NCBI GenBank assembly: GCA_045837725.1
Contig: JBEWZL010000066.1
Location: forward strand, 62,001 to 126,000
Direction of reading: 5' to 3'
Source: Vermamoeba vermiformis
Lineage: Eukaryota
DNA length: 64,000 bases
The translations under genes were made by a program, and so were the position numbers. Shown in pieces: positions 4,404 through 64,000 of the stretch. Positions within the stretch are counted from its first letter, which is position 1. Every line of letters starts with the position of its first letter. Under the pieces are notes generated by a model. It saw only the letters and a program-made list of their open reading frames with translations. It was not told the origin of the DNA and searched no databases.

Positions 4404-6495
4404 ATGCGATACCAATTAATTGCATTATTATTGTACGTGCTGTGCGTACAATTGCACGCCAGATCCATTGTGGTTAAAACCACTCTACCCGGAAGCCGAA
4501 TCTAATTCCTTATTAAATTCGTACGGGACAATTACTCGCACGATTGGTAGCCTCAATACTTACGTCGTTGAGGTAACTATTCGATTTTTTAAACAAAGAT
4601 TAAAAATTCAATTTTTAATCTCATCCAGGTTGCTGACGGAGAAGTAGCGTCCATAATTAGCGAACTCGAGGCAAGATCTGATGTAATATATGCGGAAGAA
4701 GACAGAGGGATTCGTAAGAAATTTTTTCGTTCTAGATCTCAACGTTAATTTATTTTATAAAAATTTCAGTGCAGAAACACTCCAAGGACGACTACGTTAT
4801 AAACGATCCCGAGGCTGTTAACCAATGGTATCTTGATAATATGCAAATGTACGAGGTTTGGAAGTACTTCCCTTGGAAGGACGAAAACAAAGTCGTAAGT
4901 AGATCTCATCCAAAATGGCAAAATGTTCGCTGCAGCACGTCGGACTTGACGCTAAAATTTTATATTGTAGACTCTAGCTCTTGTAGATGACGGACTGTAC
5001 GAAAATTTGGATCCAGATCTGGCCAACACTAAAATTTCGCCGTTAAGTTTCAACATCGCTCTAAACAACACTAACATCGGCGCTGATAATCAACACGGCA
5101 AGTATATAATTATTCTAAATCTTATTTCTAATGAATAATAATAAATACGTCCAGGCACTGTAATTGCGGGGCTCGTTGCTTCCGAAGTTAACAATTCGAT
5201 TGGCATTGCTGGCTTGGCGCCAAAGCTCGAATTAATGATCATTCAAATCTATGACCCAAAAATAGCTACTTGGGCTGCACTTGCCGATGGAATTGTTTAT
5301 GCTGCTGACAATGGAGCACGTGCCATTACGACTACTACTGGTGGCCCCCAAAGTAATATTACCCCTCCAAAAGTTTTAGAAGATGCTGTCAACTACATTG
5401 TTTCTAAAGGTAAATATTTTGAGGTATTACTGTGCAGCGCTAATAAAGATATTTTAGGCTCCTTATTAACAACATCTGGTGGTAATTCATACAAAGATGG
5501 AAATACTTTGTTTTGTCCTCCTTGTTACAATCAGTCCATTGCTGTTGGAGGGCTGCAAGAAGATGGCACTTGGTGGGTTGAAGCAAATACTGGCCCTCAT
5601 ATCGACATTGTAGCACCAGGTAAGAAATAAGTCTCAAACTCTCTGCCAAATGACTAACAATTTGTTGCAGCTTCAAAGCTCCGTGCCTATGATGTTCTTC
5701 AGCAAGCTTTCACTGACAACTATGGCACTTCTTTTTCAGCACCCCTTGTTGGTGCATGCTTGGCATACATTTGGAACCAAAATCCATCGCTGACCAATGA
5801 AGAAGTTCGTAATATTCTCTACGCAACTGCCCATGATTTAGGTGATCCAGGAAGGGTATGCTAATCATAATGTCTATTGAAAAATGTCTAACAATGAATG
5901 CTTTCAGGATGATTTTTATGGCTATGGCAATGTCAATTTGCTGTTGGCTTTGAAAGGTAGTCGAATAAGTTAATTCAATTGACTTAATTTCTTCTTAGTT
6001 GCAACAAACAAACCTCCTGCTTTGACTGGTGCAACTTCAGTGGAAGTTTTGAAGGGATCAGCTATCAACCAATCATTTGAAATCACAGGTAAGAGACCCA
6101 TTTCAATTCTTTTAATCTCTTTAATATTTTGTTGCAGGGCCAGAAGCATGGGACAGTGTTGAAATTACAGTTACTGATGCTGGTAACTTTAACTACACTA
6201 TCGATGGAACTGTAGTTTCCTTCTATTCTGAGCCAAAAGAAGTTGGTGCATACACTGTTAAAGTGTCAGCTGTTGATTCTTTAAATGCTGCAAGCACTTT
6301 TGAATTGACCATAAATGGTAAGTTGGCAAAGGAATAAATTTACTCAGGGACTAATGAACTATTTTTGCAGTTGTCACAGTATTGCGCCCACCAACTTCAA
6401 CTAACCCAGTAGCTGTTTCTGATGCTGTCTTGTTATCATCAACTTTGGGCTTGGTGGTATCTTTTGCTCTGAGCATTGTGCTGGTGATTTTTTAA
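4404..6495 (+). CDS. Secreted subtilisin-like S8 protease with C-terminal Ig-like region and hydrophobic (TM/GPI) tail; apparent 1-nt insertion at 4488-4490
   Basis: Signal peptide MRYQLIALLLYVLCVQLHA; catalytic motifs LVDDG, HGTVIAG, GTSFSAP; GNS oxyanion Asn; HDLGDPGRDDFYGYG; tail LLSSTLGLVVSFALSIVLVIF. Confidence 0.88.
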
Positions 6496-6768
6496 GGCAT
6501 GACAATAACTAACTAATATTTCGACTCCAACTTAATACCGAATAAACTCTGTCATTCAACACTCTTTGAATTGTCTCTGTTGCAAAGAAAGTTGGAAAAT
6601 TGACGTATGTCCTCTGGTTCCTTTGAAGCCTTGGTATGTCGTTTGGTAATATCATCGATCTTTGAAATAATTAACATTGTTAGTGCTTGTCGGCTGCTAT
6701 TATTTTCACGTACAGTCGGTTATAATCTTTGCACCGAACATAGATACTAGGCGGTCAAGTTATGGCTG

Positions 6769-8347
6769 TCAATCGTCCCATGACTCGAGCCCAAACAACT
6801 TTCGTCCCAAAGGTGTAATTAAGTCATTGATATTGTGATGAAAAGACGCTTCCCAGTCAGCGTTTCGTCGCGTTAAAATATTTCCGGTTGAAAACATTGT
6901 TGGCTTGGATCCGGCTTGAACGCATCTGCTCACTTCTTCTCGGTAAATTTTGTATAGTCTATCGCGCTCGGTAATAAAATTGATAAAACATTGTAAGCGC
7001 CATTGATTTGATACGTTCAGTGAATTTCCATGAGGCAATCTCGTTGACCAAATAAGGAGATCTCCTTTCTTCATCGGAATGTCGATCAAGTCGCGTTTAA
7101 TCGCCTCTTTGTCCATGTAATGCAAAAATATCTCTTCTGCTGCTGGCGGTACTTGTTTTGTACCAGGATTTTCTTCGTTGTATTGACCGTTCTCGTAGTT
7201 CTCTCGGTAGTTTCTTATCTTATCTAACTTATGATAGCCTTAATAAGAGTTCCGTTAGCTTGATTATCTTACAACTAATAATCTTTCATAGACTCATTTA
7301 GTCTGAGGTGGAATTTCACATTTGATTAGGCTAGCGACTCTGAGTAAAGTCGATAGAAAAATCCGTTGCTTATTGACATCAAAAGGATTAAACACGTGTC
7401 AAAATGTCATAATATGTCAAGTAGAAGCGTTACGAGAAATTTTTCACGGAAGGTGCCGAAGATATTTTTCGTAATTAAATGTATCGCCATGATGACACGT
7501 ACCAGGCATGACAGTAAATCCGCCGTTTCCTATTGGACAATCTTGCAAACAAACACTGCCTTGATATTGCGGGAAGTCCAGGTGCCACGGATTGTTGTCC
7601 GTGTGGATCTCTAGATCTCTTTGGTACTTCGATAAATCCACTTTCTATATTAGGAAATTGCTATATTAGGAAATTGCTATATTAGGAATATTTTCTATTA
7701 ATATAAGATAGAGCATACTTTGCGTTGACCGTGTTCTTCGATCTCGATCCAAGCTGGAATTTTCATTGAAACGCGATCCAACGAGACTGTCAATTTTGGG
7801 TCTCGTAGAATTTGTGCAAAGATACTATACAATCGAGGGTCTTGTCGCATTTCATAATATGCCGGCAAGTGCCATAGATCCATGTAATTTCGTTTATACA
7901 ACTACATCCGACCAACACAACAATTAGTCATACTGTAACGATATAGAATTATATTATAGTACTATATTATTATAATACATACCCCGGCAGCCTCCCAAGT
8001 GTTCATATCATTGCGAACAAGTCCCGTCAATTCGTTAGCGCGATCGAAGATCTGCTCAACGAGCTTATCGACGACTTCTTCATTGAAAAAATTCTATAAT
8101 ACGATATAAGTAAGTAATACAATAAATAAGAAATGCCGAAGCGATCACAAGACAACTGAAACTCCGATCAGATCTTGGTCTTTGGTTGCGAGAGGTTGAA
8201 ACTTACGGGCACCAATAAATAGCCGTTGTTTTCTAGGAAATTAATTTGATCTTCGCTGAATTTATAGTCTAACGTGTGCGGGTATCGGCTCAACAGAGCA
8301 ACTTCCTCATCTGTTAAACGGTATCGTTCTTCCTCTTCCATGCTCAT
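6769..8347 (-). CDS. Phytanoyl-CoA dioxygenase (PhyH)-like Fe(II)/2OG oxygenase
   Basis: FLENNGYL, LTVSLDR, MKKGDLLIWSTRLPHGN, QGSVCLQDCPIGNGGFTVMPG; multi-exon. Confidence 0.88.
7645..7688. repeat. 16-bp tandem repeat CTATATTAGGAAATTG x2.75 at an intron 3' end of the PhyH gene
   Basis: Directly visible: units start at 7645, 7661 and 7677 (last one partial). Confidence 0.9.
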
Positions 8348-8693
8348 ATCTATAAATAATTAAATAAAATTGTTAACAAGCTGTACTAACGACCAAATTA
8401 AACTTTACAGCGGTACTGAAGACCCACCATTATTAAAAATTCAAAAAATTATTTTAAATTATGAAGAATAAATAATGCATATCAGGGCGTATTATAATGA
8501 TAAAAGGAACATTAGGATATTTTTTTAGGCAATAAAAAATTTAAAAACGGTTACCTTTGCGAGATCAAGTTTCAGATTTGCGAGCGTAGAGCATCTGAAG
8601 TGATTAAAGTGATTATTTTATCACGATTATGCTTATACAATAAATATAAACGGTTGAAGAATGGTCTTCCTTTCGTGCGTGTTTGATTCAGTG

Positions 8694-11165
8694 TTAAAAA
8701 ATGATTTGACGAGGCTCATGAGCTCTTAAATATTCTTTCGCCTCCTCATTCAACCAATCGTTAGTCATTGTTATTAATATAACCGGATCATCCCAGTTAT
8801 ATTCGTTGTAAACGTTCACTTGTTGCACCAGATGCGCTGGAAATGGCTCCGACGAGTATATAATACGAACCCAGTATTTTTTGTTAATCTTCAAAATTTG
8901 TTCGAATTCGCTTTCCTCTGCCTCGATCTCGCAATCCAGGACGGTCTCATCTAAACTCTGCTCTTCTAACAACGCCTGATCTGCTTGGCTAAGAACAAAA
9001 CCTAAAAAAGAATATTTTAAAGGATTAATATATATACCTTTGTCTTTACTTACGCGGGTCAACTCTTCTAACGGCATCTGCGAACGATTCCGTTTTCCAG
9101 GGCTTGCAAGAAATTACTCCAATTCCCGTTATAGGCTCTAGTGTCTTGCTATTTGCCGTTTTAAATAAGAACAAGACTTCACTACTAAGATTGTGATTCA
9201 GCAGAATTCTATCATAAGTTTTCTTCTGCACCATAAGTGCCAGATCCGTTGACCGAGCGGATTCATAAACGCTAGAAATTGATGTAGTACAGAAGCGTAT
9301 GTGACAGGGTAAGTTGAAATAAGGTGGGACAAGGTCGCGAAAGAGGTGAAAAAGAGTTGTGGGATCAGAACAACAATATGTTCGTTGTCTAAAAAACCAA
9401 GCCAACAAATACTCCGTAACTCTTCCCTTCATGTCATAAACATTCGTAATTATAGGGTAAGACGGATTAATTATTTCGTCGTTAATGAGGTGCCGGTAGT
9501 AATCTCTTTTGGATTCAACGTGGCGTTGCACGGCCTCAAATAACATTGGTTCGTCTTTTCTTCGAATTATTTGTTTGCCGTGCGTTGAATTACTCATAAC
9601 AAGATCCGATTTGACCAAATCAGTCAGAATATTGTCGTCGTCAATCACAAAATGATCTTGATCTTGAATTACTGTTGCAATGTAGACTTGCGCAATGAAC
9701 TTGGATGTTCGGTGGTTTCTAATAATCATAGTTCTTTCTTTGTAATAATCTAACAGCCTTTCGCACGTAGATGACTGAGTGGCATTGAATGTTCGTTTGG
9801 CCATTGCTACTAATTCTTCCAAAAAATTTTCTGACGTATGGTCCTTTTTGAATGTTAAAGAATAAAATAGGCCTTGTAGTAGACGACTAAAGTAATAAGG
9901 ACGGCCACAAAGCTTCTCAAGCCAAAGTTTCAGATCCGTTTTGGCATCCGCAAGGTTCACGTCAAACAGCGAGTGCAACGTCTTCTCCATACCTTCGACT
10001 GTTATTTTAGGCAAGTCTGAAAAGGGTATGACGCGTTCAGCCTCCAAAATATTGAATGTATCTCTATTGCCGTCAATGCTGCAAATTTTCCAGTTCGGAA
10101 TTTCAATGAGTTTTCTTAACACCTAAATTACAATCGTTAATCAGAAATTTAACAATGACAACTGCCTTACATTGGTGAAAGCTTCATAGAGTACGATATC
10201 GACAGTGTTTTTGGAATCAGATATGCCAGGGTTTCTGATTAAGGACACGTGCTCAAATACAACTAACGGCCTTCTTGAATGGCCAAGAATTTGCTGTATT
10301 TGTTCGAAAAAAGTATTGACATATTTGTGGGATTCGCAAATCAAGTCTATTGTTGAAAATTCTGTCCATCGTTCGTCTAAATTGTCTGTTACGCCTTTTA
10401 GACCGTCATTCATAGTTAAGGCTGTTATACACGCCATTCTAGCTTGGATTTTATCGTCTTTGAATTCGTCGGCTATTTCCATTGCCCATTCGATGTGCGC
10501 TAGAACCCAGATCTGGATCAATAGTTCGCTCCATTGGATTTTTCTCTTGTGAGTTTCCGAATTGAATGAAATTTCTTCGGTGGTGATGTCATTCCACGGA
10601 TCGAATTGCTTCATGAATTGGCCTATTTTGTCAGATAGCCACTTGATTGTTATTTTAAAGTCTATTAAGATCATGTAATAATCAGTTGACGGATCTATTC
10701 CAGCTGCAATACATAGTTCACGTTTTCCCGAGCACCCTGTTTGAACTACTGCCACGAGACGATTGTTGGACGGATCCAGATCTTGATGCGTTTGATCCAA
10801 CGCTTCGTAGAATTTGTGAAGTTTCTCTTGACTAAAATAGGGTAGATATGATATAACAGGAACAGCATCGTAAAGAGGAATAGCAGTCTTGAGCAGAGGC
10901 CCATAGCATTTTTGTTGCTTTTGCAGATCTTGAGATCTTTCGAAAGATGTTTGTAATTCGATGATTAATTCCTCCTTATTCTAAAATCAATTATTAGCAT
11001 TAATAACGTAATTGAAGTCGTACTTCGAGGTACATGTTCGGTCTTTCGTTTTTTTTCTGGTCGGATCGCATCGTCGCTGCAATTCAAAGCTTTCCTCTTC
11101 TTGTTGTTTGTTTCACTCTATCAAATCAGTTAATATGTTACAGTAACTTAATTAGCACGTACCAT
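8694..11165 (-). CDS. Crinkler/RHS-like protein: degenerate P-loop NTPase plus degenerate restriction-endonuclease-like domain
   Basis: Walker A-like VAVVQTGCSGK, Walker B-like RPLVVFEH, GRPYYF motif, then KGRVTEYLLA and SEVLFLF...VISCK. The ORF breaks at about 9002-9053 and 10123-10171 are GT-AG introns. Confidence 0.55.
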
Positions 11166-22300: not shown

Positions 22301-25300
22301 TGAGTGCGTGTGCGAGCTCTTCGAGCAGCTCTTTCATCTGTGCTTGAGTGCTAGCCTTCACGAACCATGAGGTCTCAGGGTCCGTTTAACAAGAAGCCGT
22401 TGCCAAGCGTGAAGCCAGCAGCTAATAATCAGAATTAGTATTTGTCACGTGATCGACTTCCATAAAAGGAAAAAGTAGGTCTTACCTGCAATAGTCTCGA
22501 TGACTTTTTGATTTCGTTTGTTGAACTCAGTGTCGAGCCAAACTAATGGAAGGCTTTGGCCTGCTTCGTTCAACGTTGCTTTTTTGTGCATGAAGTTGGA
22601 TGCGAGGATCAAATCGTTGAAAATCATCAACTCGGGCTTGACTTCGCTCTTCCTGCCTTTCTCAGCGTCAGAGAGGTCAATGATAGCTTCCAATTGGAAC
22701 TCTTTCACGAATCTTCGTTGAGCGTAGTTGCCTTGTGTCAACAAAACTTCGTAACCACCGCCCTTGGCAATCAAGTCCTTGAACCGTTGCTCGCAAATCT
22801 CCATCTGTTCATCAATTTTCTTGCGCTCGTCGATGTATCGGTTGACTTTTTGCACGGCTGCAATGGCATCACGCAAGTTTTGGAAATCAACGTGCGTTTC
22901 TTCAGTGTAATCCAACAACGCTTTCAAAAGCAACTCGTAACGCATGATACGTTGAACTAAGAGGTCAAGTTAGTACTATATTTGTGATTTTAGTATTAGC
23001 TAATGACGTACCAGGCATGATAAGATACGCGTAGACGTCGAGACCGCCCGTGTATTTTTCATAACAGTTCTTCAAGAATTGAGTGTAGTGCGGGTACTTC
23101 GATTCAGCTTCTTGTTGCTTTGTACGAGCAGTCGTGAAATTTCTGATGTATCGATAATACAACGTAAATAGCTCAGCCTAAAGTAAACGTTAGTTTTTCC
23201 GTGTCTGGAATGAAATTTCATGGCTTTAGCAACTCACGTTTTCTTTGAAAATATCTGCAAATGTAGCGACTTTAGGCCACTCTTTGTAACGTTCTTCCAA
23301 TTTATGCAACAAAATTTGATTCAGTGCAGCAATGACTTCGATATCTGAAAAGATCTCGAACAATTCAAACGGCGTCAACAACTGCAACTTTTGAATCGGA
23401 CGAACGAAGACCTAAAAATAGAAAATCACGTGATCAGTTTCTATTTTGAAGATTCTTAGAATAACAAGATCTTTTTTTTCGTACCTCCATAACTTTGTTC
23501 AAATGACCGACAAAGTCGCGTTCAGTCGTAATAATTTCTTTCAACGCATTGTTTCTCTTTCGCATTTTTGAAGCACCTTGCGAATCAGCCCATTGCAATA
23601 CTACGGAACTGCATTAATATCCAAATATGGAAATATTTCATGAACAGTGTTTACGTACCCCATTCAGGTCTGAAAGTTCTCTTGCGGACCAAATAATTTC
23701 TTACGATGGCTTGACATTTCAACACCTGGGCAATGTTGTACATCTTGCCGTTGACGAATTCAACTTTAGGATACTTAATTCGCTTCGATTTCTGCGCTGA
23801 ATGAGTTCGCTTGATGAAGTTGGGAATTTTGCCGTTAAATTCTCCGCTGGTAGTCGGTGATTGGCTGGGACTTTCTTCGGCTCTGAATTCGATGTTTTGG
23901 ATCAAGGCCGATATCCTGTTTTGTTTGCGTTCTTTGGCACGGGTAATGCCTTCTTGTTGCCATACCAACTGGTCTTTGAGGGTCTTCAGCTGATCTGCTT
24001 TGACCTGTCAAAAAATACGTGTCAAAAAAGAAAGTTCCATGACAAAATCTTAATTATTCCGTACCTTAATTTCATCTTCGAGCTGCTTAATCTGCACAGA
24101 GACATTTGCAGCCTTGCCTTCCATATCAGTAATGTTCACTGAATCTTCACGTTGCATGCCCGAAGCATTAGATCCCGGGCCATTGCTGTTCGTGCTCATT
24201 TTGCGCACGTGACTGACTGATCTGTTGACAGCAATGTCGTCTTGCTTTGGAGCAATTGCATTGGTGTTAATAGACGCTGAACTGTTGCTCTTTGGTAACA
24301 ATGTGGTCGTGCTGTTATTGCGTGAATTAACGGGGGACTGCTTGGGCTGGGCAGGTTGCTTCGGGGGCTGCGCTTGTGGGGGAGGCTGAGGTTGGGCCGG
24401 GGTGCTTGTTTGGACCTTTGCCTCGACACTCACAGCCGGTTTTTCTTCCGTAGAGCTCGTAGTACCTTTGCTACCCGTGCTTCCCGTTAATGTAGCAACG
24501 CTGGTACTAGCCGTTAGTTTCTTGTCATTTTGTTCTGAATCGGCCAATGAGGCCTCTAACCGTTTAAATGCTGGGCTGACTTTCACATCTGTCTTTGACG
24601 GTGATCTTAATCTTTCAATAGCGCTGTCTCTTGATCTTGGTTGCTCGTCTGACGGCACTGAAGCTGGTCCTGAGTCGGTAGCGTTGGGATTTTGAGGTTG
24701 AATGACCACAGGTTTCTCGTCAATTTTCACAACTGGATTGCTCGGCTCGCGCTTGACATCGTCCTTATTATTGTTAGGCCTATTAGTGTTACTCTCTACA
24801 ACGGGCTTTGGTTCTTCCATGGCATAAGAATCGACTTCAGATCGCGCGGAATCGGCTGGTCTCGCGGAGTCAATTTTTCTCGGTGAAGATTTATCTGCTC
24901 TCGGTGAATTAATATTCGCTGTTAATTTCCCGGAACTTTTACGTTTTTTATGATGGCGCTTTTCTTTCTCGTCTTTGCTATCTTCGCTGTCTTTCTTGTT
25001 GTCTTTTTTCGATTTGGCTCTTTTCAAAGAAGGATTGTCTTCTTCGCTATCTTTATGCAAAGGACTGCTAGGAGCATCATATAAACTTTTTCTGTTGGCT
25101 TTACGAGCGCTTCTCGGCTTTTTTTCTTCTCCGCTGTGATCGGATTTCGCCCTCTCGTGACCTAATGAATCTAATGGCAATTTTTTGTGTTCTTCGGTCT
25201 TATTATTGGCGTCTACGTTTGTATTATTTTCCGCTATAATTATTAAAAATTAGTTGGATCTTACAACGGTTAGTAAATTTAAATTTGGGTCTAAAGTATA

Positions 25301-25743
25301 TTTACGATAGGTAGGCTGAAAATTCGGCAAATAATATACAAAATAATAATAATAAATTAATAAATATTGAAAATCATTTTACCTGACGGCGGGGTCAATC
25401 CCGCAAAAGTTGGCAGTTTCACATCTACGCCAGCCTTTTGAGCGTTGCGCAAGAAAGTCTCAAAGCAGAATAAAAACTCTTCAAATGTGACTTTGGATTT
25501 GTTACTGCTTGCTTTCAAGAGCTTCTTGCAATTGTCTTCGGTTACATCAACGCCGATGTCCTCCAAAAATATTTGCAATTGAATTGAGGCGTTCTTATAT
25601 GGTACTGTGCCATCCTTGTTTCCATTGCACTTGTCAAAACAAGATTTAAGCGTTCTGTAGTAAGCTACATCAGAGTCATCCGCAACGGATTTGATCTTCT
25701 TGCGGTCAGAGTGCTCTGATTTTGCCCGCTTCAGTCCACTCAT
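19393..25743 (-). CDS. EF-hand-like + IQ + RhoGEF (DH-PH) + cNMP-binding + GRAM + cNMP-binding protein; apparent 1-nt insertion at 22378-22380
   Basis: DH motifs EIITTERDFV and YLIMPVQRIMRYELLLKALL; CNB motifs LFLVIEGSVRI and GAMFGEMSFL; GRAM motif GRLYISGHFVCF; IQ-like CQAIVRNYLVRK. Confidence 0.9.
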
Positions 25744-26422
25744 GGTTGATTTGCTGCATAACATAAAATACTACCGCAACAACAAGAACACAACGAGCTT
25801 TAAACCGAGATTTTGCGAGTTTTATTTATTTCTAATTATAGTAACACCACAATCATACCAATTGCATTATCGCTTACTACACGACCCACTGATACAATTT
25901 AATGTTACTCTCAGGCCAGGCCGGTCTCCCGTAAGTTCAGCAGATTTTTTGTTTGTGAAACAGATTTACCGTTGATTGAGAAAATTAATAGACTTACAAA
26001 TACCGTCATATAAATTCTTGTTATAAATTGATATTATTTATGTTATGAACGGCACAAATATTTTCTCGATCTTGATCTCGGCCTAGGATAATACTTATCC
26101 TTGCTTTGTAATTAAATATGCAAGTCGAATTAGCGCTAAATTGCGCAACATTATGATAACACCGTAACGGATAAGATTAAATAGCTAAAATTAGCTGAAA
26201 TAGAACGGGTGATGTAGATCACGAGTCAGGCCGCGTACACATGCCTGTTAGAGCATATTAAATTATAATCCGAACTATCATAATTAAGCACTTTTGATTC
26301 TTTATTGATACTACTTCCTCCGCTACACAGCTCTTACACGGGATCCGTATTTCAAACCACCAGCTTGCATTTCTCTTCATCTTATACGAACGAAACTACT
26401 TTCACCACCAATAAGCAATTCA

Positions 26423-28352
26423 CTAGTTATAACTAGTGAATATCTTATCTGCTGTCAATTTGAAGTTTGATAGACCAGGATAACGCAACTTTTCAAAGAT
26501 CATCAGCCAGATCTCGTACGGCAATTGTTCGAATACAACTGGATCTCGCGCTATATTGTGGATCAGTATAATAGTGTTGGATAGCATCGATGACTGGTAT
26601 TCAATATTTCTTCGCGTAAATTTTTTGATAATTTCGTTGTTTCTGCACCGAAGAGTGCAATTAGTCAGCTTTCTTATTGACCAATTGTTGAAAGAATTAG
26701 TTAATTTTTCTGTCACGCTCTTGATGAACAGGTCATTATTCTCGACATTTATGCTCAGATCCGTCAACGTGTCATTAAATTTCAACGCATCCAAGACGCT
26801 ATCAACTTCTTCAATTTTTGAATGGTAATGCAACTTGACTAACGTAGTATTGTTTTTAATTATTTCTGCAATATTGAAGCTTTCTTTATCAGACGCCGTA
26901 GATTCATCGCCGAATGCTATTCTTTTAAGCTGAGTACTTTTCGCCAACCATCGTTGCATCACTTTCAACGCTTCGCTCGAAAAAATTGTTCTTTCGAATT
27001 CAATGACCTCTAATGATGTGTTGGATTCAAATGCGAGTGCTATAGGCAGTGTATCTCCCGTATGAAGTCTGAATAATTTTAGATCTAAAATTTTCAATGC
27101 GCAATATCGATCTTTGAGCGCTTCAGTGAACGGTGAAATTTCCAACGGATGTTGCAAGACTGTGTCGAAAGGAAATCTGTTAGTTCTGTAGCGAGCAAGT
27201 TTTAATTCCTGCAATAGTTTGTTTTGTACGGTGCCATTCAACAAAATTTCGATTGCTTGCTGCGATAGTCCCGCGACTGCCATGTGAAATTTCTTGATCG
27301 ATTTGCTTTGCTGAAGTCCGTTGCATACCGATTGAATATTTGCAGGCGTTATGACGCTGCTCGGTGTAATTTCAATGTCTACGAAGGTTAATGACGGGTG
27401 ACACGCGAGAACTTCTGCCAGCCTGTCAAAAGTGTCATTTTCACAACGAGAGCGGCTGATTTGCAGAGTTTTTATCGACGTATTGTTCTTGATCGCTGAA
27501 ACTATCTTAGTATTTGAGTTTGATATATGCAAATTTTCTATTGAATTATTCGCTGCAAACGCGTCTTGTAAAAATTGGTCGTTTTCGGAAATCAGTCCGA
27601 CGAGTGTCAGATCTGTAACGCTATTTCCAAAGCTGCACGGCTGATTGATAAAACAATCCATAGATAATGACTCTAGCGTGGTATTTTCGGATATTCCGTC
27701 ATAAATAAACTCCGTATTGATTTTTCCTTTGTTCACCGGATCTGGCTTTGGCGATGTCGCAAATAATCTTCGAATTGACTTGTTATTTTTCAACATTGAT
27801 GAAACTAGTGCTGAATTTTCCTTGTTTAATCGGGTGCAACCATGAGTCAATTGCAATTTTGTGATACTCGTACTGGCTTCAATCGCATCCAACACGATCT
27901 TCAAGTGTTCGCTGTCACAAAGTGCAATATCGAGGATTTTCAATAGCTTATGGTTATATATGAAATGTGCAAGCGCTTCTACTTCAGCTCTAGTCTGAAA
28001 TTGATACAAAGTCACTTCTAAGCTTTGAAGATCCGACTTTAACAGCTGATCGACAGATCGGCAGAATCTGGTGACCGAGGGATCACGTGCAATCAAGCGC
28101 AATTGATTCTTGTCAATATGCATTGCGGTAAAAGATTCGACTTTGCCAAAGACCACGTAAAATTGTTTGATCCCGAAGGAAAAATACTAAATTATGAAAT
28201 AAATTAGAATAATTATTTGAATACTACAATAATTTTGGAATTTATCTTCTCACCTCCTTACAAAGTGTACAGAATTTTAGTCTTCGTTTGATACTTATTG
28301 AAGTATTGTTGCAGATCGGGCACCGATTGAATTCTGGAAGCTCAAAACTCAT
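26423..28352 (-). CDS. RNI-like LRR protein with N-terminal CxxC..CxxC and C-terminal F-box-like motif (paralog 1, intact)
   Basis: Exon 1 MSFELPEFNRCPICNN...CTLCKE, one intron, long LRR exon (LKNNKSIRRL, ESNTSLEVI), ending LPYEIWLMIFEKLRYPGL. Confidence 0.85.
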
Positions 28353-28501
28353 TTCATATGACTTTGCTTTGAATCTATATTATTTGTGCTTAATCATATT
28401 CATTTTAAAAAAAGAACGGGACCAGTGGTGAATCGCCGCTTGAAAATTAGAATAAAACACGAGATCTGAGTTTATGCGTTTATTTTTTCCATAGACATGC
28501 T

Positions 28502-30493
28502 TCAATTCTTATTATTAGAGGTAGTCGTTCTGAATATCTTATCGGCTACTGATCTAAAGTTTGGTAGACCAGGATAACGCAACTTTTCAAATATAATGAG
28601 CCAGATCTCGCGAGGCAATCGTTCAAATGCGTTGCTGTCTCGTGCAATATTGTGGATTAATACTATCGTATTTGACCACATTAACGATTGATATTTTATG
28701 TTCCTTTTAGTAAATTCTTCAATGGTGGTGTTGTCAAACAAATGCTGGTGATTCGTCAATTTTCGTAATGATTTGTTAGTTTCAGAATTCCCCCAGTTTA
28801 ACAACATTCTTTCAATTAATTCCTGTTTTGAAGAGAAATCCGTGAATAAATCTGTCGAATTTTCAAATGCTATCGAAGCGTTTGTGAATTTCTTTGTCAC
28901 GCTCTTGTCGAACAAGTCATTATTCTCGGCATTTATGCTCAGATCCGTCAATGTGTCATTAAATTTCAACGCTTCCATGACGCTATCAACTTCTTCAATC
29001 TTCGAGTAGTAATGCAGCGTCGTCAATGTCGTATTGTTTTTGAGAATAGCAGCTAGGTTGATACCATCTCCATTTTCTTCGAATTCGTTACCAAGTTTGA
29101 TGCTTTTCAAACGAGGGTTTTTGACTAGCCATCTTTGCAGCACTTTCAATGCTTCGGAAGAAAAACATGTCCGCTTCAAATTAACGTCCTCTAATGATGA
29201 ATTTGCTTCCAAAGCGAGTGCTAATGATAATGTACTGTTTGTATGAATATTGCATCTGTGCAGATCTAATTTCTTTAACGCACAAGAAGGACTTTTGAGC
29301 GCTTCAGTGAACGGTGAAATTTCCAACAGTCGTTCTGGCTGAACACAAAGTTTCAATTCTTTTAGTATTTTGCTTTGTGTGGTGCCGTTTAATATGCATT
29401 CTGCAGGTTCATCATCTAGTGGGCAATGCCAGTGAAATTTCGTTATGGATTGACTTTGTTGAACTCCATCGCAAAGCAATTGAATATTTGCAGATGTTAT
29501 TAACGAAAATGTAGAAATCATATCTAGTGCCACATATGACAATGACGGATGACATTTTAGAACTTGTGACAGCGTGTCAAAAGCACTGTCGTCAAATTTT
29601 GTTCGGACAACTTCTAGTTTCTTTATCGATGTGTTGTGTTTGATGGCTGCAATAACTTTCAAATATGAGTTCGTTATTTTAAGATGTTGAATAGACTTGT
29701 TGGCCGTGAACGCGTCTTCGAGGAATTTTAGGTTGGCAGATCCGGGCCGAACCAAGATCAACTCTTTGATGCTGTCACCGAACCTGAATGGCCTATTACT
29801 TGTACCATCAATAGTGAGTGACTTAATCGTTGTATTTTCGGATATTCCGTCGTAAATAAACTCGGTGTTGATCATTCGTTGATCGGATCTAATTCTGTTC
29901 ACTACTAATCTTCGAATTGACTTGTTATTCTTCAGCATTGACACTACTAATGCGGCATTTGCCTCGTTTAATTGCGAGCAACCATTTTTCAATCGTAGTT
30001 TGCGAATACTGCTGCTCGTTTCAATCGCATCCAACACGATCTTCAGGTGTTCGCTGTCATAAAGTTCAATATCGAGGATTTTCAATGGCGTGTGGTTCGA
30101 TATAAAATATGCTAGTGACTTCATTTCCTCCGCGGTTTGAAAGCAGCTTAACGACACTTCTAAACTATCCAAATCTGACTTGCGCAGCTGATCGATCGAG
30201 CGGCAGAATTTTGGAACGTGGATATTACGAGAAATTAGGCGTAATTGGGTACTTCTACCTCCTACTGCGGTAAATGATTTGTTTGAGCCATAGACGAGGT
30301 GAAATTGCTTGTTTCCAAAGGTAAAATACTAAAATTATAAATAGTGATTAGAATAATTAATTAAATATGGTACGAGTGAATAGCCATTATACCCACCTCC
30401 TTGCATACTCTTGCATAATTTCAAATTCCGTTCACTTGTCAAACTATTGTTGCAGATCGGACACCGTTCGAGCTCAACTTCCAGAGAGCTCAT
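28502..30493 (-). CDS. LRR paralog 2; apparent extra base at about 30411 in exon 1
   Basis: Same two-exon layout as paralog 1. Removing one A gives CRVCKE and restores the phase-0 splice; 556-aa open LRR ORF. Confidence 0.8.
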
Positions 30494-30680: not shown

Positions 30681-32563
30681 ATGATGATCTTTGAACCAGT
30701 TCAATTGACGAATTGTCCGATCTGCAACTGTTGTTTTCCAGATTTGACTCTTGCAAACGGAATTTATTTATGCACGAAATGCAACGAGGTAAGAGAATCA
30801 ATTAACAACTGAATTTTATCATAAATAATTGAATTATTCATCTTTAGTATTTTCCTCGTGGATACAAACAATTTGATGCTCTTTACGGGAGCAACCTGTC
30901 GTTTACAGCTTCAGGGCTATATATGGCTTTGCAGTTGAACTCACCCCAGATGGTCGAAAAATTTTGTAAATCAAAAGATCAGCTGCTAAAGTCCGATCTT
31001 GGTCGCGTGGATGTGACGCCAAGTCACTTTCAAACGAAAAAAGACATGGAAACACTTGCACATATTTTAATGCACCATAAGCCATTAACTGACGTCAAAA
31101 TTACACTAGATAACAGCGAACACTTGAAGATCTTATTGGATGCAGTTGCAGACAGTCCCAATATTCGGAAATTAGAGCTTAATAATGGCTGTACTGATCT
31201 AAATGAATATAATGCCGCCCTTGTTCGTTCAATGTTGCAGAATAACAAGTCAATTAGAAAATTATTGGCTCAACATGACAACACGAAATCGAGATTTATT
31301 TTTGACGGGATATCAAAAAATACTAGCCTAGAAAGCATAAATATCAATGATAGAATAGATAGTCCAATTATATTCAGCGACAGCGTTAAAAAATTGACAC
31401 TAGTTGGTGGATACAAACCTGGATCAGATTTCAACGTTGAATTTTTACGCGATGCCCTGGCTTCTAACAAATCGATACACTATTTAAAATTGATAAAATC
31501 GCATTTGAAACTCACTTCAGCCATCTCCGGAAACACATCCATCAAGCGACTTTGTGTTTTCCAGGACAGTATGAATAATAATGACGAAGACTTAGTCAAA
31601 TTTTCGCAAGCATTGAAAGACCATCCAACATTGACCGATGTATCACTTCAAAACGAGCCTAGTCACAGTAGAGAACGCTACTAATGCTATGCAATGCAAT
31701 CATAGAAAGCAAGCCCATAATCAAATTTGAAGCACACGCCTTCGCATCCAGCGACATTTTGGCAGTTTTTTTGAACAAATTAGTACCAAGTCAACGTTTG
31801 ACCGAATTAAAAGTCCGAAATTCATCGACCTTAACGAACCCTGTGGAAATTTCAGCCGTTCACCGAAGCGTTGAAACATCGGTACTGCTCGTTGAAAGTG
31901 TTAGACCTAGAAAATGCTTCTTTCCCCACAGACAATACTCTATCATTAGCACTTGCATTAGAGGCGAATACATCGTTAGAGGTCGTAAATATGAAAGACA
32001 CTACTACTTTTTCGGATGCGGCGCTGCAAGTGATGCAACGGTGGTTGGCAAAAAGCACTCAGTTAAAAAGCATCAAGTTTGAAGCACAACATTATAAGAG
32101 TTGTGATAAATTAGATCTAGCAGCTATAATTAGAAACAATACAACACTTGAAACTCTGCATTATTATCGAAAACGAAAAACTATTGACGATATCCTGGAT
32201 GCGCTGTCAGTAAATGACACTTTGACAGATTTGGCAATAAGCACTTCTAAAGAGGATTTTACGAAGAAAATTGAAGAAAAAATAACACCAAACAACTGGG
32301 CTATTAGGAATTTGTTTAATGCAGACTATTTTTCGTCCGACGACATTATCAGCAATTTAACAACAAGAAACAAACAGTATCAATCTGCAATGCAATTAAA
32401 CACGATTATTGTCATTCATAATATTGCACGAGACAAAGATTCATTCGCACGATTGCCTCGCGAGGTCTGGCTCATTATATTTGAAAAGTTGCGGTATCCT
32501 GGTCTACCAAACTTCAAATTGACAGCTGATAAGATATTCAATAGTTACAATACGAAGATATAG
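30681..32563 (+). pseudogene. LRR paralog 3, divergently oriented, two frameshifts (about 31680 and 31855); pseudogene or assembly errors
   Basis: Exon 1 CPICN...CTKCNE; coding region split over three frames; TCAGCCGTTC versus paralog TCACCGTTC shows an extra G. Confidence 0.7.
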
Positions 32564-56731: not shown

Positions 56732-56890
56732 TTGTCTGTTGTACTACTAAAATGATTTCAATTTCTTTGTTCGCGTTTATTTTGTAAGCATTGTGTTTTC
56801 GATGAATAAATAGCCAATAAATATTGTGGTCGGATCGGCAAAAAGAAAAAAACTGTCATTTAATTTATCTTCTTCAGTTACTCCGAAATA

Positions 56891-59067
56891 ATGCAACAAA
56901 TGGAAGTGGAGCATAGCAGCTCTTGGTCTCCAACCCTAGCAGGGCTGTTGGACGAATTGAAAGCCGCGATCATGGTTTTGTTAGATGCGAAATCCGCTTA
57001 CAAGTTGGGACTAACGTCCAAAAATTTCCTAAAAATAATTAAAGACCCTCAATTAAGAATGGTAAGGTTTTAGTCTTCAATCCGATTGTTTTCTGCTAGC
57101 AAAAATAAATTTTTAATTTTTAAATATTAATATTTTTTTACGTAGCACAAGAAATTATTCAAATTAGTCACCGATGCATTGACACTCGAAGACCACCCAA
57201 AGGCATTCGTAAGCAGAATATTCAATACACTTGTATTCTGGATCAGTCAATAATTTCGTGTCACGAACAGAAAATCGTCAATTCATGTTTAATATTATTT
57301 CCGTGGTATTGGAAATTATGGAGAAAACGTTCAGACTATTGGAACTACAACCACGAATTTACAAAAGTACTGCAAGATCTACGAAAAGCGCACGAGGTAA
57401 AAAAAACTAAACTTCCAAGTTTACTGATATAATATTATAATAATAGGTTTGTCCTCGCGAGGCATATAGGCATTTAATTATGAGCGACATTTACGTGACT
57501 GTTGCCGAAGTAAATTCAGCGCTGTCAGAAATTCAACAAGCAATTGATTTAAGGCCCGATCATTTGACTTATTATCATCAACGAGGTAATTACCTATACA
57601 ACAACATAACATATTAACCTAATTAAATAATTAATTAATTTAATTACGACGAAACGTCGAAATTGAATCGATGCGTACCTTCCTTTTTAGGCAATTTTAT
57701 TACATTACTAACGACATATTTTTGATAGCCTATATAAATAGTAGATTAGGGATGACGACTGCTGATCAAGAAACAGACTATTTAATGATATTGGAGAAGG
57801 GATATAAGGTACGTGTCGTGCAAAGTTGGATCCGAACATCGATTTAAACTTAACATTCTTTCGTTTAGCGAGAATCAATGATTCATAATAACTTGGCCTA
57901 TTGTTATTTCTTATTAGAGTAAGTACCTATATAAATCTTGGTCGAATTTGATAATTAGTTATTTAATTATTTTTTTTTATTGGATCTGGCCCTAATTAGT
58001 CTATTTAAAGGCGCGATGATGAAGCGGCAGAACATTATAGCAAGGCACTTGAATTAACGCCAACATTCGTCCGCGCAATGTTGAATAAGGCTTTGCTGCA
58101 TTTGTACAGAAACGAATTGGATCAGGTTCGTACGAAAAAATTCGATTTAAAATAATTTAAATTTATTATATGTACTAATGGAGTGATATTTATTATAGGT
58201 GCTATTATATTGCGAAAAGATTAGGAAGATTAATCCAGAAATTTATGAAATTTATCGCGATGCATCAGAGTACGTCAAAAACTATTTAGTCTTTATTATT
58301 TATGAGCTAATTATAGCATCATTAGAGTATATTTTATGCATAGTAGATATAAGAAGGCTACTAGATATATTCAGAAGAGTTGGCACTTATCAGATCGGAT
58401 GGATCTTCATGGAACGAAAATTTATTTTATTTTGTTGGACCGATTGGGCGCTATTGATCGGTTATTAGAAGAGCTCGATAGTGCTATTGAACATTATCAG
58501 TCGTTATTAGCTAAAGTGGCAGACGAAATTTCGAAAATTGACGGCGATGAATTATTCATGAAAGCTGCGGTTAAAAAACAGAATGTGGTGACAGGATTAT
58601 TATATTATTCCCTAAAAAGGAAAATACAAGCACTAGTCTATTTAGGAGAATTCAAGAAAGCCGTCAATTTATACGAACAAGCAAAAATTCATGCCACATC
58701 CGGCGAAGAAGACAAATTTTTTGATTTATTATTCAACCAAAAAGTCGTTAATTTCGACAACGTCAAAATATCAAAGCAGTTTATTACGAAGATGGCAAGG
58801 ACGTCAATGCTATTATCATCTGAAAGAAAAAAATTCATCTCACAAGTCAACGCAAAAGTTCATACGATGGACGAAATTTCATTTTTTACGCTTTGTTTAT
58901 TGAAGAAGACTACTATAGTCAATCTATTTCAATTCGAATTAACGAACTTGAACCAGAACGATGAAAACAATTTGAAGAGCTACTGGACCAAAGTTCAATC
59001 CTACTGCAAGAACGGTGTCGATTTGAAATTAATTGCAATTGAACGTATGGGCTGGGAACACTTGTAA
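56891..59067 (+). CDS. TPR-repeat protein
   Basis: ALSEIQQAIDLRPDH, HNNLAYCYF, AAEHYSKALELTPTFVRAMLNKA. Confidence 0.78.
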
Positions 59068-59463
59068 AATTATTATCTTACAATAATATAAAGCTTCTTA
59101 CCAGAGAGATGCCCTCTGTTAGTTTTACCTCGTTCCTTTTCAAGCCTCTCGGGTCGCAAAGTTTAGTACGTATTTACTGACTCATATTATTCTCTCATTA
59201 TGTATTTTGAAGTAAGCAACTCACTTTCGGGAAAAACGCGTTTTTGCGGTTTTAGCCCCACGAATGTTGATCTTCGCGACAAATTGAGAGAACTCATCAA
59301 CGGAGCTGAGAGGTGTCATACATTTGATTATGCAAGATCAAGTACCGCTTGGTTATTAAGCTAGAAAATCCAGTCATCCGACTTGTCAGGGATCCAACAT
59401 CTTGAGCACTCAATCTTCCAGACTAGTAAATTGTTTAAATAATGTTTATCGCAAGTGAAGTTT

Positions 59464-61923
59464 TTAAATCTTTTCAACGTTATCCAATTCAACGCCAAAA
59501 GACTGCGTCGTGTCTTGCGACGTCTCTACAACAAGTTGACCATCGGATTTGCCAGTCATTTCGAATTGAATTTGTTCCATGGTCTTGCCCTTAGTCTCGG
59601 GCAATTTAACGAAGAAATAAATCCATGCAATGACTGCGATGATTCCGTACATCCAAAAAGTTCCCGCCTAAAAAATTTATCGTTTAATAACATTAGCTAT
59701 TTAATATTATTATAGATCTTGTGTATAGTATAATTGTTAATATTTAGGATTCGAACTTACGACTGTTATGCCTTCTGAAATCGTTAAAAAAGTCATCGAC
59801 ACCACCAAGTTGCTGATCCAATTGACGGTTGTCGCGACAGAATTAGCCATGCCGCGTATTCTCAATGGATATATCTCGCTATTAACTGCCCAAGGAATAG
59901 GTCCCTAAAATTATCTTCATTAGCACGATCGAGTTTTCGCGTGTCAAAGTGTCAAAGTGTCAACTGTGAAAAAATTTACCATTCCGATTGCAAAGAAAGC
60001 GACGTATATAATTAACGCTCCTAGTGCAAGATAGCCTATATAAATAAAATTAAAATTGATATTTATAATGAAATTTCGATATTTGAATCGTGTCTGTGGT
60101 ACCTCTATTTCCAGCTGTAATGAAAAAAGATGCGCCTAGTAAGCCCAATCCTAACACGACTCCGACTAATGTGCTCAATAATAACGGTCGTCTTCCAACA
60201 CGGTCTATTAATAAGATTGATACGATCGTGAAAATGGCGTTAGACAAAGCGACCAGATCTGACAACAAAATAGCCCACTGACGTTCTTCAAATCCAGCCA
60301 TAAATAGAATTGTAGCACTAACTTATTAATTAATATATCATATTATAATAATAGTGAGTTATAGTTAATTACGCACCTATAATACATTACGGTATTAATT
60401 CCGACGAATTGTTGAAAAGCTTGCAGAGAAATTCCAACGAGCAAGGCTGGTCTCACATCACTATAAATATTTTATTAGTAATTTATTAATTATATTATAA
60501 TAATTATTAATAATAAGGTACGTACGCAGATAACAATTGGCGCCATCCGCCGGACTCGATCCGGAGACTCATCGAAATTTCATCGAGTTCGAATTCAATC
60601 TGAGAGCAGTGAGATATATTGATAATATAATACAAATATATAACGTACAACATCCTCGGGTGCTGAAGGTCGTACTTGGTGCAGCACAACAGCTGCTTGG
60701 GCCGATTTACCTTTGCTAACTAACCACCTCGGGGTCTCAGGCACGAGCACTATCATGGCGATCAATTGCACTATGGCTGGGAGGGCGCCAAGGCCTAGCA
60801 TGTACCGCCAACCTGAAAGATATTACTATATTTAGAAGGTCCGAATTTTGTTCGAATGACACGTGTCAACAATTTTTTCACGGACAAATTTTTTGCTGTA
60901 ATGAGCACCGCAAAGATTAAATCAATTATTATAATAATCAATAATCAATAATCAATATTTGCAATTATTTTTTAATATTACCGTCCAAAACTTCGGCAAA
61001 GATTGACGCGATTAGGTATGACACGAATTGACCGGTCGTTATGAACAATACATTGATCGTTACTAACGCACCTCTGACAATATAAGTCCATATTAATATT
61101 TGATATGATTATATAAGCTATATTAAATTATTATTGGTCTCTCACTGACCTGCTCTCAGCGGGTGAAATTTCTGCAATATAAATTGGTACTGTGTTTGAA
61201 GCGACACCAATGCCTAGTCCTACGACAAATCGGCCAAATAATAGTAATCCATAGCCACTATATAATAATATTACTATAAATGAGTCAAATCAAGAGATAA
61301 GTATTTTTTCTAGAGCGGATCTAGTTTTTTTGCAAACTTACTTTGCTGCAGCCATTAATAGAGACCCTATAATGAATGCTACTGCCGCAGCGCATACTAT
61401 AGGTTTACGACCAAATTTATCACCGGTAAAACCAGCGACAACAGATCCAACAATCGCGCCTAAGCAAAAAATAATTTAAAAATTCAGAAAAAGATATTTT
61501 AAAAGATTTTACGGACCTATTAGCGCCATACTAACAATAAGCTCTTGTTGAGAATCGCTAAAAGCAAAATCACCGGCAAGAATAAGGAGCGCGCCTGAAA
61601 AAAGAAAATTATGAGCGACATCTGGAATATTAATATCACTAAAAATACCTGAAATAACTCCTGTATCATAGCCGAATAAAAATCCACCAATGGCTGATAT
61701 AAATGTAACTTTAAATAGAAAATTCCTGCTTGGCTGAATAAAACGATGATTAATTGAATATCAAGGGAAAAAAACCTCGTAATATTCAAATAATTATTTA
61801 TATATAAATATTATATACTAGATATCGTACTAAATATGTTTGGTCACCACCAGATTCACTGGCAGCACTGAAGTCAGATTTGTTCAGCCTATTATCGTCT
61901 TCTAATTCTTGATGTTCCTCCAT
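59464..61923 (-). CDS. MFS sugar porter, myo-inositol transporter-like
   Basis: [74 protein letters not shown]. Confidence 0.93.
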
Positions 61924-62218
61924 ATTGATACAGTACTATTTACATGTTCATTAATCGATAATACAAATGATTTTGAACCGAAATAAACGCAGTACAAATC
62001 TCTGACATCAGAAATTTCACCAATTTTCTTTTGTGCGTTGTAACACAATGCTCTGCCTCGTTAATTTAGCTGCTATAATACATGCCATAAACGCAGATCG
62101 ATCCTGCCCAAATGATTCGTATCCCTTGAAGCCGATTTTTAATTTTATTTTTCGTTTTGGCAACGTTGCCAAAATTAATGACCAAGCCACCATTTTAATC
62201 TTCATTTGGCAATCCGAA

Positions 62219-64000
62219 ATGGAGCACAACAACAGTGAATTAAATAATTTTAATTACTTCGAGGCCATACCGGGCGAAGTCCAAGCCAAAATTTTCAATT
62301 ATTTAACGTTGAAAGATCTCGTTGGAAGGTTAGCGAGGTAAGCTACAAAAATATTATTCAGGTATTATTTTTAATTATTCTAATTATTATGGTCGTAGAT
62401 CTTCAAAACACGTGGCGAATATTATTCAAAATTCATTATCAATCCACGGCGGCCCACATAACTCACTAAACATCTTGGTTACTGGCCACCATGGCGCAGG
62501 TAATAAAAGGCAAAATAATTATAGTAATATAAACATAAATGATTCGTTAATAAGATAAACAACAGATTCGTACGTTACAAAATTTTTTTTTAAATTAACA
62601 CTTCATGTTAGGTAGTTCAACGCTATATACTAGACTTCAAGAAGAGCTTGGTATCAATTCGATGGTGAGAAATTTATCGGAATCGAACGAGATCGGATCT
62701 ACCTACAAACCCGTTGACGATCGCCGGTGCCAGATCTCCGCAATTAAACTCGAAAATACTCGTGCGAATATATGGCATGGTTCAACTAAGGAAAATAGAG
62801 TCAAAAGAATGTACCCTCATTGCGGTGCTGTAAGTAGATTCAGAATCTGGATGTGACCACACGTTTAGACTCTAACAGTTTTCTTATTTTGATCGATAAT
62901 ATAGGCTCAATGTATCATTTATGTTGTATCATGCTCTGAAATAGCGACAAGAGGTGATAGTTTGCGTAACGATATTCGGTGCTATCACGCTCTGACCAGC
63001 GATGTTCAATGGATATTTGTCATCAACAAGATGGACCAAGTTCAATATAACGAGCAAGGTATGGCATTAGATGCCGGCTATTGATTATATTATAGTCTTA
63101 TACTTCGATCAGAGTACAACAAGTGTGTCGAAATTATCAAAAAGATAGCGGTGAAAGTGATCGGTGAACAACGCTTGGACAGACTTCATTTCATTCCGAT
63201 GTGCACAAATGATATGAAAATACGCGTAACAAGTGATAATAGCAATCAGAATATGACATGGAATTCGATGAACTTGTGGCGCGTGTTGAATCAAATCGCA
63301 TCCGAGAGTTGTTCTTCGCCTCTCAAAATGTTCAGAAAATTCAAAGCTACTATAATTAGAACGTACGGATGGGTACCAAATGTATCAGGAAAAGACGAGG
63401 GCTTTGTTATCGTTTATGTACTGGGTATGGAATTTCGTAGAAATATTTTTTGGATCCGGCGCTAATTGATTCGATAACGTAGAGGGCTGTATCTCCGTCG
63501 GGGATCATATTCAAATTATTCCAGACCTATTTGGTCCTTATATAGATCAGAGGTACAAATATGCCTCCGTTGAAGTAGTGGGGATCCAGTCGTACAATAC
63601 GAAAAAAACTATCGCCTTGCCCAAGTAAGACCCCTTTCCTCGTAATACATTTTACTAATGATATTATAAGCTCGTATGTCGGTCTTGCGATTAAAAAGCC
63701 GACAGCTCTAGTATACCATACGAAGATCAGGCCAACGCCAAAACCAGTACGCATCCAAACAAAATCGATTTACAGCTTAATTAATACTAATATTTTAATT
63801 TATTAGAAATATTCAATTGTTCATTACCCTGGTATTACACTCTCCAATGAGAAAAAACATGATATTATTTCCACAACCAATGGCGGTGGGATCCGCTTTA
63901 CGAAGCAGTTATCGTGCACGTTGGACATCAAACTGGACGCTATAAATGGCACGGCATGATCCACGAAGTAATATTCATAATCTTACATCAATTAACTTGC
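62219..64000 (+). CDS. F-box fused to a degenerate eEF1A/eRF3/HBS1-like GTPase fold; runs off the window
   Basis: F-box FEAIPGEVQAKIFNYLTLKDL; LNILVTGHHGAGSST; AQCIIYVV; WIFVINKMDQVQYNEQEY; LHFIPM; SPLKM. Confidence 0.72.

Follow-up and report, generated by a model that had tools for sequence, protein, structure and literature searches.

Three described translation GTPases, eEF1A, eRF3, and Hbs1, contact their partners through domains II and III or through the G domain, and these partners include aminoacyl-tRNA, eRF1- and Pelota-like proteins, exchange factors, and the factor site of the ribosome. Here we describe a gene near the end of a 64,000-nucleotide stretch of Vermamoeba vermiformis DNA (contig JBEWZL010000066.1, positions 62,001–126,000; the whole stretch is called the window below) whose predicted product joins an N-terminal F-box to a body derived from this GTPase clade. 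A further described relative, yeast Ski7, is a GTP-binding Hbs1 paralog that probably does not hydrolyze GTP and whose nucleotide-binding site is described as similar to those of active translational GTPases (PMC4509514). The gene in the window resembles Ski7 in that an EF-1α/Hbs1-type body would be reused as a binding module behind a different functional module at the N-terminus; Ski7, however, binds GTP (PMC4509514), whereas the body here is without the P-loop lysine and G3, and its N-terminal module is a predicted F-box.

We judge it probable, as one joint reading, that this is a protein-coding locus in a eukaryote whose introns are short and of fungus type, and that it encodes an F-box protein whose EF-1α-derived, switch-less body acts as the receptor of an SCF (Skp1–cullin–F-box) ubiquitin ligase.

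Predicted gene and its putative F-box

The gene lies on the plus strand and starts at an ATG at 62219 that is conserved in a syntenic ortholog, L001. Within the window it comprises eight GT-AG exons (62219–63967; exons joined by coordinates), given here with the evidence for each.

62219..62337, plus strand: exon 1; ATG and N-terminal half of the putative F-box (FEAIPGEVQAKIFNYLTLKDLVGRLA); sub-cut-off Pfam matches
62399..62499, plus strand: exon 2; rest of the F-box region, followed by NSLNILVTGHHGAG, which covers strand 1 and the first part of the P-loop; splice model
62612..62829, plus strand: exon 3; remainder of the P-loop, with Ser in place of Lys, a switch region of reduced length, and, where DxxG/switch II would stand, IWHGSTK / MYPHCGA; motif table including the relatives P0007, P0008, and P0009
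62905..63058, plus strand: exon 4; strand 4 to G4 (WIFVINKMDQVQYNEQ); Pfam GTP_EFTU, E 0.0062, profile positions 97–136
63113..63424, plus strand: exon 5; post-G4 helix, G5 (LHFIPMCT), NMTW..LW..LN block, and start of domain II (SPLKMFRKFKATIIRTY); profile A3 and P0006 against archaeal EF-1α
63483..63624, plus strand: exon 6; domain II barrel (EGCISVGDHIQIIP...ALP); inside the 265-column hhalign match to CysN
63671..63746, plus strand: exon 7; end of domain II (NSYVGLAIKK...); splice model
63807..63967, plus strand: exon 8; first part of domain III, with the reading frame shifted by a net −1 at about 63879–63898 and a GTAATA donor at 63968; two frames match L001 exon 8 successively

The introns are short and of fungus type (46–112 nucleotides), and reading frames continue over the exon joins, with a lone break in exon 8. 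The predicted product runs from the N-terminal F-box through an EF-1α-type G domain and domain II into the start of domain III. A preliminary description of the locus had quoted a series of motifs after manual splicing; all are present, in the order it gave, once the GT-AG introns are removed (FEAIPGEVQAKIFNYL, GHHGAGSST, IWHGS, INKMDQVQYNEQEY, HFIPM, and SPLKM...EGCISVGD). The gene continues past the window end at base 64000, where its L001 counterpart has two further exons. Exon 2 is 101 nucleotides long in both genes, the two copies align, and it has no Pfam match at E ≤ 10; exon 6 alone matches nothing in PDB or Pfam. Exon 7 has two conceivable donors, one ending the exon at 63746 and an alternative GTATAC donor that would end it at 63710; L001 exon 7 measures 46 nucleotides, and its DNA identity to the window exon is at background level. 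The window has a G+C content of 36–43% and contains other short-intron genes. Rfam and tRNA scans of the window gave no Rfam match and no tRNA, and tblastn found no second copy of the gene in it.

L001 is a single metagenome locus, with which the window is collinear: open reading frames (ORFs) at 56864–63625 follow L001 1–6500 with order and orientation preserved. In L001 the gene consists of 10 GT-AG exons (5164–7226) with an intact ORF of 512 amino acids and the same architecture, and all introns of the two genes fall between aligned codons. Its C-terminal part reads ...GEKAEVLLSCAIPLDL...RGRFLILTQKSHVVVVGTI, which by eye, and set against the C-terminus of eEF1A, resembles the domain III end of EF-1α relatives.

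The F-box-like core of the window protein is FEAIPGEVQAKIFNYL. An intron splits the domain, which in F-box proteins spans some 40–50 amino acids, and scores refer to its first half only: window exon 1 reaches 15.3 bits with Pfam F-box-like (cut-off 24.3) and 12.2 bits with F-box (cut-off 20.5), and L001 exon 1 (31 amino acids) reaches 26.4 bits with F-box-like, above the cut-off (E 5.9e-6), and 20.3 bits with F-box. A two-sequence exon 1 profile searched against PDB sequences gave one match below E 1, the F-box of yeast Cdc4 (1nex_B, E 0.0035), in which IEALPGEVTAKIFNYL stands opposite ITSLPFEISLKIFNYL. The putative domain shares with F-box proteins such as Cdc4 and the FBXO class, whose C-terminal domains are of various kinds, an N-terminal LPxE(I/V)xxKIFxYL core that matches both the Cdc4 F-box and Pfam F-box-like, and that presumably forms the first, Skp1-contacting helix. 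It differs from them in that the Trp usual in the third F-box helix is not evident, and in that the C-terminal module is an EF-1α-derived pseudo-GTPase rather than WD40, LRR, or kelch.

The preliminary description had joined the F-box exon to the GTPase exons, and the predicted splicing agrees. Exon 2 carries the first P-loop residues and lacks an in-frame Met in both genes; the frames of exons 1, 2, and 3 are continuous in both despite unequal introns (61/48 and 112/98 nucleotides in the window and L001, respectively); and no protein similarity between the two loci is found upstream of the ATG. These three features tie exon 1 to the GTPase-like exons and support the prediction that they form one gene. 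Exon 1 itself is 45% identical in protein between the two genes, with the F-box core kept.

Origin and motifs of the EF-1α-like body

Window sequence by itself places the body poorly. When the eight exon translations were compared with Pfam at E ≤ 10, two (exons 1 and 4) gave matches. Exons 3–5 share one frame through two introns (75 and 54 nucleotides), and their read-through translation, with X at stops (P0001), matched Pfam GTP_EFTU at E 0.0092, below the cut-off. The window-alone matches lie below curated cut-offs, and the family assignment exceeds chance only through relatives.

A HMMER search with P0001 over 1.84 billion representative proteins returned eight at E ≤ 0.001 (seven at E ≤ 1e-10), all 90–219 amino acids long. 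Each is an ORF fragment whose translation runs through introns at the same positions (for example ...YNEQG, intron-derived residues, EFNKC...). An exon 5 profile recovered nine proteins among 2808 candidates, and a separate exon 5 search for longer proteins returned none; a full-length annotated homolog is absent from both protein collections searched. Profile A2 found no relatives in the genome-contig collection, and the viral-contig collection gave none either. The sequences fall into a group A (the window, L001, P0002, P0004, P0010, and P0012), whose members are mutually 48–89% identical in exon 5, and a group B (P0006, P0009, P0013, and P0014), whose members are 80–90% identical to one another and 26–44% identical to group A in exon 4. 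Group B stands nearer EF-1α (E 2.5e-10), and DxxG is missing there too (P0009). With very few, fast-evolving members, the family is represented in protein collections by ORF fragments only, and for that reason it has escaped annotation apart from automatic labels: the IMG pipeline calls two of the fragments, P0002 and P0014, "translation elongation factor EF-1alpha." These labels, placed on intron read-through fragments, hide a distinct F-box-linked family.

Profile comparisons of the relatives point to one GTPase clade. Nine queries were compared with NCBIfam at E ≤ 1: P0006 matched the EF-1α subfamily model (E 2.5e-10, 39.5 bits), TIGR00483 (9.4e-10), and CysN (3.4e-7); P0003, of the L001 lineage, matched CysN (2.9e-6) and EF-1α (8.7e-6); P0012 and window exon 5 gave matches at chance level only; and no query matched the EF-Tu, SelB, EF-G, or IF2 models. 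Against PDB sequences, all 11 matches of P0006 at E ≤ 10 were archaeal EF-1α, Hbs1, or eRF3 (best E 1.3e-6). Profile A3 gave eight of nine matches to EF-1α, Hbs1, or eRF3 (best E 9e-4, aligning the exon 5 stretch with archaeal EF-1α residues 166–222), the ninth being sucrose synthase at E 1.7.

We also compared the spliced proteins with an NCBIfam-labelled local panel from bacterial loci, in which 54 of 398 ORFs were GTPases: 27 of CysN type and 27 others (EF-Tu, EF-G, RF3, TypA, LepA, IF2, Der, Era, and one unlabelled). The spliced L001 protein matched 23 of the 398 in phmmer, all of CysN type (best 34.9 bits), and none of the 27 other GTPase ORFs; the window protein matched eight, again all of CysN type. 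An hhalign comparison of the family profile with the panel gave the following values.

CysN: 98.7%, E 2.4e-16, over 265 columns from the P-loop into domain II
CysN, three fully sampled genomes only: 98.0%
Era: 80%
Der: 18%
IF2: 10%
EF-G: 8%
LepA: 8%
TypA: 2.5%
RF3: 1.5%
EF-Tu: 0.5%

An unrelated GTPase family as the origin of the body is rejected; the Era and Der matches cover the generic P-loop half only. The PDB, NCBIfam, and hhalign comparisons together bear out the earlier placement of the body in the EF-1α/Hbs1/eRF3 clade, and they support its assignment to the EF-1α clade in the wider sense (a/eEF1A, Hbs1, eRF3, and CysN), with no parent lineage singled out by the local comparators, all of them from bacterial loci. 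Scores stay below the curated family cut-offs (39.5 bits for P0006 vs 502 for NF008969; 16–18 bits vs 26.5 for Pfam GTP_EFTU), and the predicted body is a homolog of the EF-1α family rather than a member in the curated sense.

The G domain and domain II of the body are collinear with those of the EF-1α family, and domain III probably is as well; alignment extends over NKMD..Y.E..Y, FIPxSA, and the blocks of type MxWYxGxTL and KPLRxP, the last at the start of domain II. It differs in having neither the P-loop lysine nor DxxG/switch II, in a G1–G4 region some 15–20 residues shorter (counted against yeast eEF1A numbering), in its N-terminal F-box, and in belonging to a very small, fast-evolving family. 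CysN/NodQ, the GTPase subunit of sulfate adenylyltransferase, is the best local comparator, and the NKMDL(V/I)QY-type G4 context common to both served to find the bacterial loci. CysN, however, is an active bacterial GTPase paired with CysD, whereas the gene here is predicted to be nuclear, intron-bearing, and F-box-fused; and the PDB matches include EF-1α, Hbs1, and eRF3, with no chain named CysN or sulfate adenylyltransferase among them.

The loss of G1 lysine and of G3, which the preliminary description had read from the window, extends across the family. G1 is GHHGAGSST in the window and GLPGAGSTT in L001, all four sequences that cover the Walker A lysine position carry Ser or Gly there, and GxxxxGK[ST] is absent from the entire window and L001 proteins. 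Between G1 and G4 neither protein has a DxxG; (I/V)(W/V)H(G/A)(S/T)T stands in its place in 5/5 sequences, together with MYxxCGA. In the hhalign alignment WHGSTK lies opposite the strand that precedes DxPGH of CysN, with a 12-column gap, and on that reading the G3 strand would have been deleted rather than mutated. G4, by contrast with these losses, is strictly kept: NKMD is invariant in 7/7 family sequences (window stretch INKMDQVQYNEQEY), and G5 is IPMSA in four of seven, with the variants MCT (window), MTA, and VTS. Because the P-loop lysine and the whole of DxxG/switch II are lost, GTP hydrolysis by the body is very unlikely; because NKMD is kept and the G5 loop retained, a guanine nucleotide may remain bound in the body as a fixed cofactor.

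Sequence divergence between the window and L001 indicates constraint. At the amino acid level the F-box/EF-1α gene is 50% identical, the TPR gene upstream 67–68%, and the sugar-transporter exons about 74–91%. Over 347 aligned codons of exons 1–7 (Nei–Gojobori, window vs L001), the proportion of nonsynonymous differences (pN) was 0.326 and that of synonymous differences (pS) 0.728, a pN/pS of 0.45; the corresponding rate ratio, dN/dS, is about 0.16, a value that is approximate only since dS is saturated. The TPR neighbor gave a pN of 0.168, a pS of 0.705, and a ratio of 0.09, and dN of the F-box/EF-1α gene is about twice that of this neighbor (0.43 vs 0.19). Since pN lies well below pS, the predicted gene is under constraint, with purifying selection overall, as estimated from two full sequences.

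Proposed function and its alternatives

In the SCF-receptor reading, the F-box would dock on Skp1, and the nucleotide-insensitive, EF-1α-shaped body would be the substrate- or partner-binding module of the ubiquitin ligase. That body would make use of the surfaces by which EF-1α relatives bind tRNA-shaped partners (aminoacyl-tRNA, eRF1, and Pelota), exchange factors, or the ribosome. A bolder version, which we consider quite unlikely, would have the receptor carry a nucleotide-locked EF-1α mimic that occupies the ribosomal factor site or seizes tRNA-shaped factors (eRF1, Pelota, or aminoacyl-tRNA complexes), coupling ubiquitination to the state of translation, or that alternatively serves as bait for eEF1A-targeting toxins; if true, it would make a dead elongation factor the basis of a surveillance route for ribosomes or factors.

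A number of observations weigh against this SCF-receptor reading. On the F-box side, the window exon 1 matches are all below cut-off (PRANC E 0.0053, F-box-like E 0.018, F-box E 0.18), the F-box is joined to the GTPase-like body in two genes only (the window and L001), and a search with the L001 N-terminus (P0015) returned only the L001 locus itself. On the side of the body, exon 4 matches GTP_EFTU (E 0.0062) and three other GTPase families (E 0.066–0.16), all under the gathering scores, and P0001 has no match among PDB sequences at E ≤ 10. The bacterial panel is biased, with 23 CysN comparators fetched by their likeness to P0006, and among the three fully sampled genomes only two of four CysN ORFs were matched, at 19.5 bits. 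L001 domain III alone reaches 0.6% (E 0.089) against the CysN profile and is collinear in a greedy alignment only; the L001 last exon has no match in PDB, nor does the domain II profile alone. To these are added the saturation of dS and a net −1 frame change that the window copy carries in exon 8, at about 63879–63898, at a short G run.

The frame change needs separate treatment. Window exon 8 is 161 nucleotides long, not a multiple of 3, and L001 exon 8 is 150. In the frame of 63807 the window reads KYSIVHYPG...KHDIISTT against KFHFIRYPE...KHYHYSIT in L001; from about 63890 another frame reads YEAVIVHV......YKWHGMIHE followed by a GTAATA donor, against YRAVILNI......YKWNGLVST and GTATTA. Spacing and donor place are alike in the two genes. 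The uncorrected frame meets a stop at 63957–59 and would give a 424-amino acid product; because homology switches frame within the exon and continues to the conserved donor at 63968, the gene is taken to run off the window rather than to end at that stop. The break would be either an assembly error or a recent inactivation.

Recent inactivation would make the window gene a pseudogene whose product ends early, without most of domain III, in a family that is functional elsewhere. The length of exon 8, the change of frame relative to L001, and the stop favor this explanation, and we regard it as a minority possibility, on the doubtful side: the break is the sole one among eight exons, the remaining frames and splice sites are intact, pN is well under pS relative to the ortholog, and the G run is a place where assemblies often miscount. 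A gene-model artefact, in which the F-box exon is a separate small gene or noncoding and the GTPase-like gene starts downstream, would fit the finding that exon and intron DNA identity to L001 are not clearly different at such divergence. The Met-free exon 2 with its P-loop start, the frames kept across unequal introns, and the conserved protein sequence of exon 1 all speak against it, and we give it very little credence.

The remaining alternatives accept the gene and change its function. The product might still work in translation or surveillance, as a diverged factor of Hbs1/Ski7 type that binds nucleotide and serves the ribosome or exosome as a cofactor; the likeness of its N-terminal helix to an F-box would then be incidental, and it would recruit no Skp1. 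The retention of NKMD (7/7) and G5 suggests that guanine binding persists, the window F-box score is below cut-off, and Ski7 offers a precedent as a GTP-binding relative that probably does not hydrolyze GTP (PMC4509514). The same paper, however, describes a Ski7 nucleotide-binding site similar to those of active translational GTPases (PMC4509514), whereas the P-loop lysine and DxxG are gone here; and the half F-box of the ortholog passes the Pfam F-box-like cut-off and matches the Cdc4 F-box. We consider such a factor improbable. Still further from the evidence is the proposal of the preliminary description, an SCF adaptor whose EF-1α mimic serves as a decoy for effectors aimed at eEF1A or Hbs1 (for example, Legionella Lgt and SidI) and delivers them to ubiquitination. 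The architecture itself, an F-box with a catalytically dead EF-1α-like body, and the roughly twofold dN relative to the TPR neighbor are in its favor. Nothing links the locus to any effector, however, and the family is tiny (eight matches among 1.84 billion representatives), with no sign of expansion. The switch region, reportedly the modification site of the Lgt enzymes, is shortened and rewritten here. The paralog count and dN/dS check that the preliminary description had suggested turned up a single syntenic ortholog under overall purifying selection (pN/pS 0.45, dN/dS about 0.16, from two full sequences) and no paralog in the window, a pattern unlike that of an arms-race decoy. The decoy proposal gained no support, and we hold it to be highly unlikely.

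Genomic neighborhood and implications

The gene is separated from its divergent neighbor by a short spacer.

61936..62218, no strand: 283-nucleotide spacer between the gene and the divergent sugar-transporter gene; presumed promoter region

The spacer has no DNA conservation with L001 (0.51 vs 0.51 for shuffled sequence). Beyond it, at about 59440–61935 on the minus strand, lies a multi-exon transporter gene of the major facilitator superfamily (Sugar_tr; exon matches E 2.3e-12 to 5e-5) that is 74–91% identical to its L001 counterpart. Upstream of this, a multi-exon gene at 56864–59077 (plus strand), conserved in L001 at 67–68% identity, has an F-box match in its first ORF (E 0.0099) and a TPR_2 match in its last exon (E 1.3e-4), both below cut-off; given the weak match in its first ORF, the sugar transporter may have a second F-box gene on its other side. 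On the L001 side, an exon at 8243–8551 (minus strand), downstream of the ortholog, has a metallo-beta-lactamase fold (Lactamase_B, E 5.8e-7), and hints at what probably lies just past the window end. Elsewhere in the window, an intronless open frame of 292 codons at 2936–3814 (plus strand) encodes a short-chain dehydrogenase (adh_short, E 1.4e-52). Three long open frames at 24050–30328 (minus strand; 399, 587, and 608 amino acids) have no Pfam family at E ≤ 0.001, and those at 9046–10980 (minus strand) and 30848–32563 (plus strand) likewise allowed no annotation.

Unusual as it is, the predicted architecture is conserved. The specificity of an F-box protein comes from the domain that follows its F-box, and in the literature searched, outside which most subscription journals lay, we found no description of an F-box fusion with an EF-1α-like or pseudo-GTPase domain. 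If the protein binds Skp1, the family would amount to a natural experiment, the conversion of a translation factor into the receptor of a ubiquitin ligase, and it would offer a handle on which surfaces of EF-1α are reusable once the GTPase switch has been removed.

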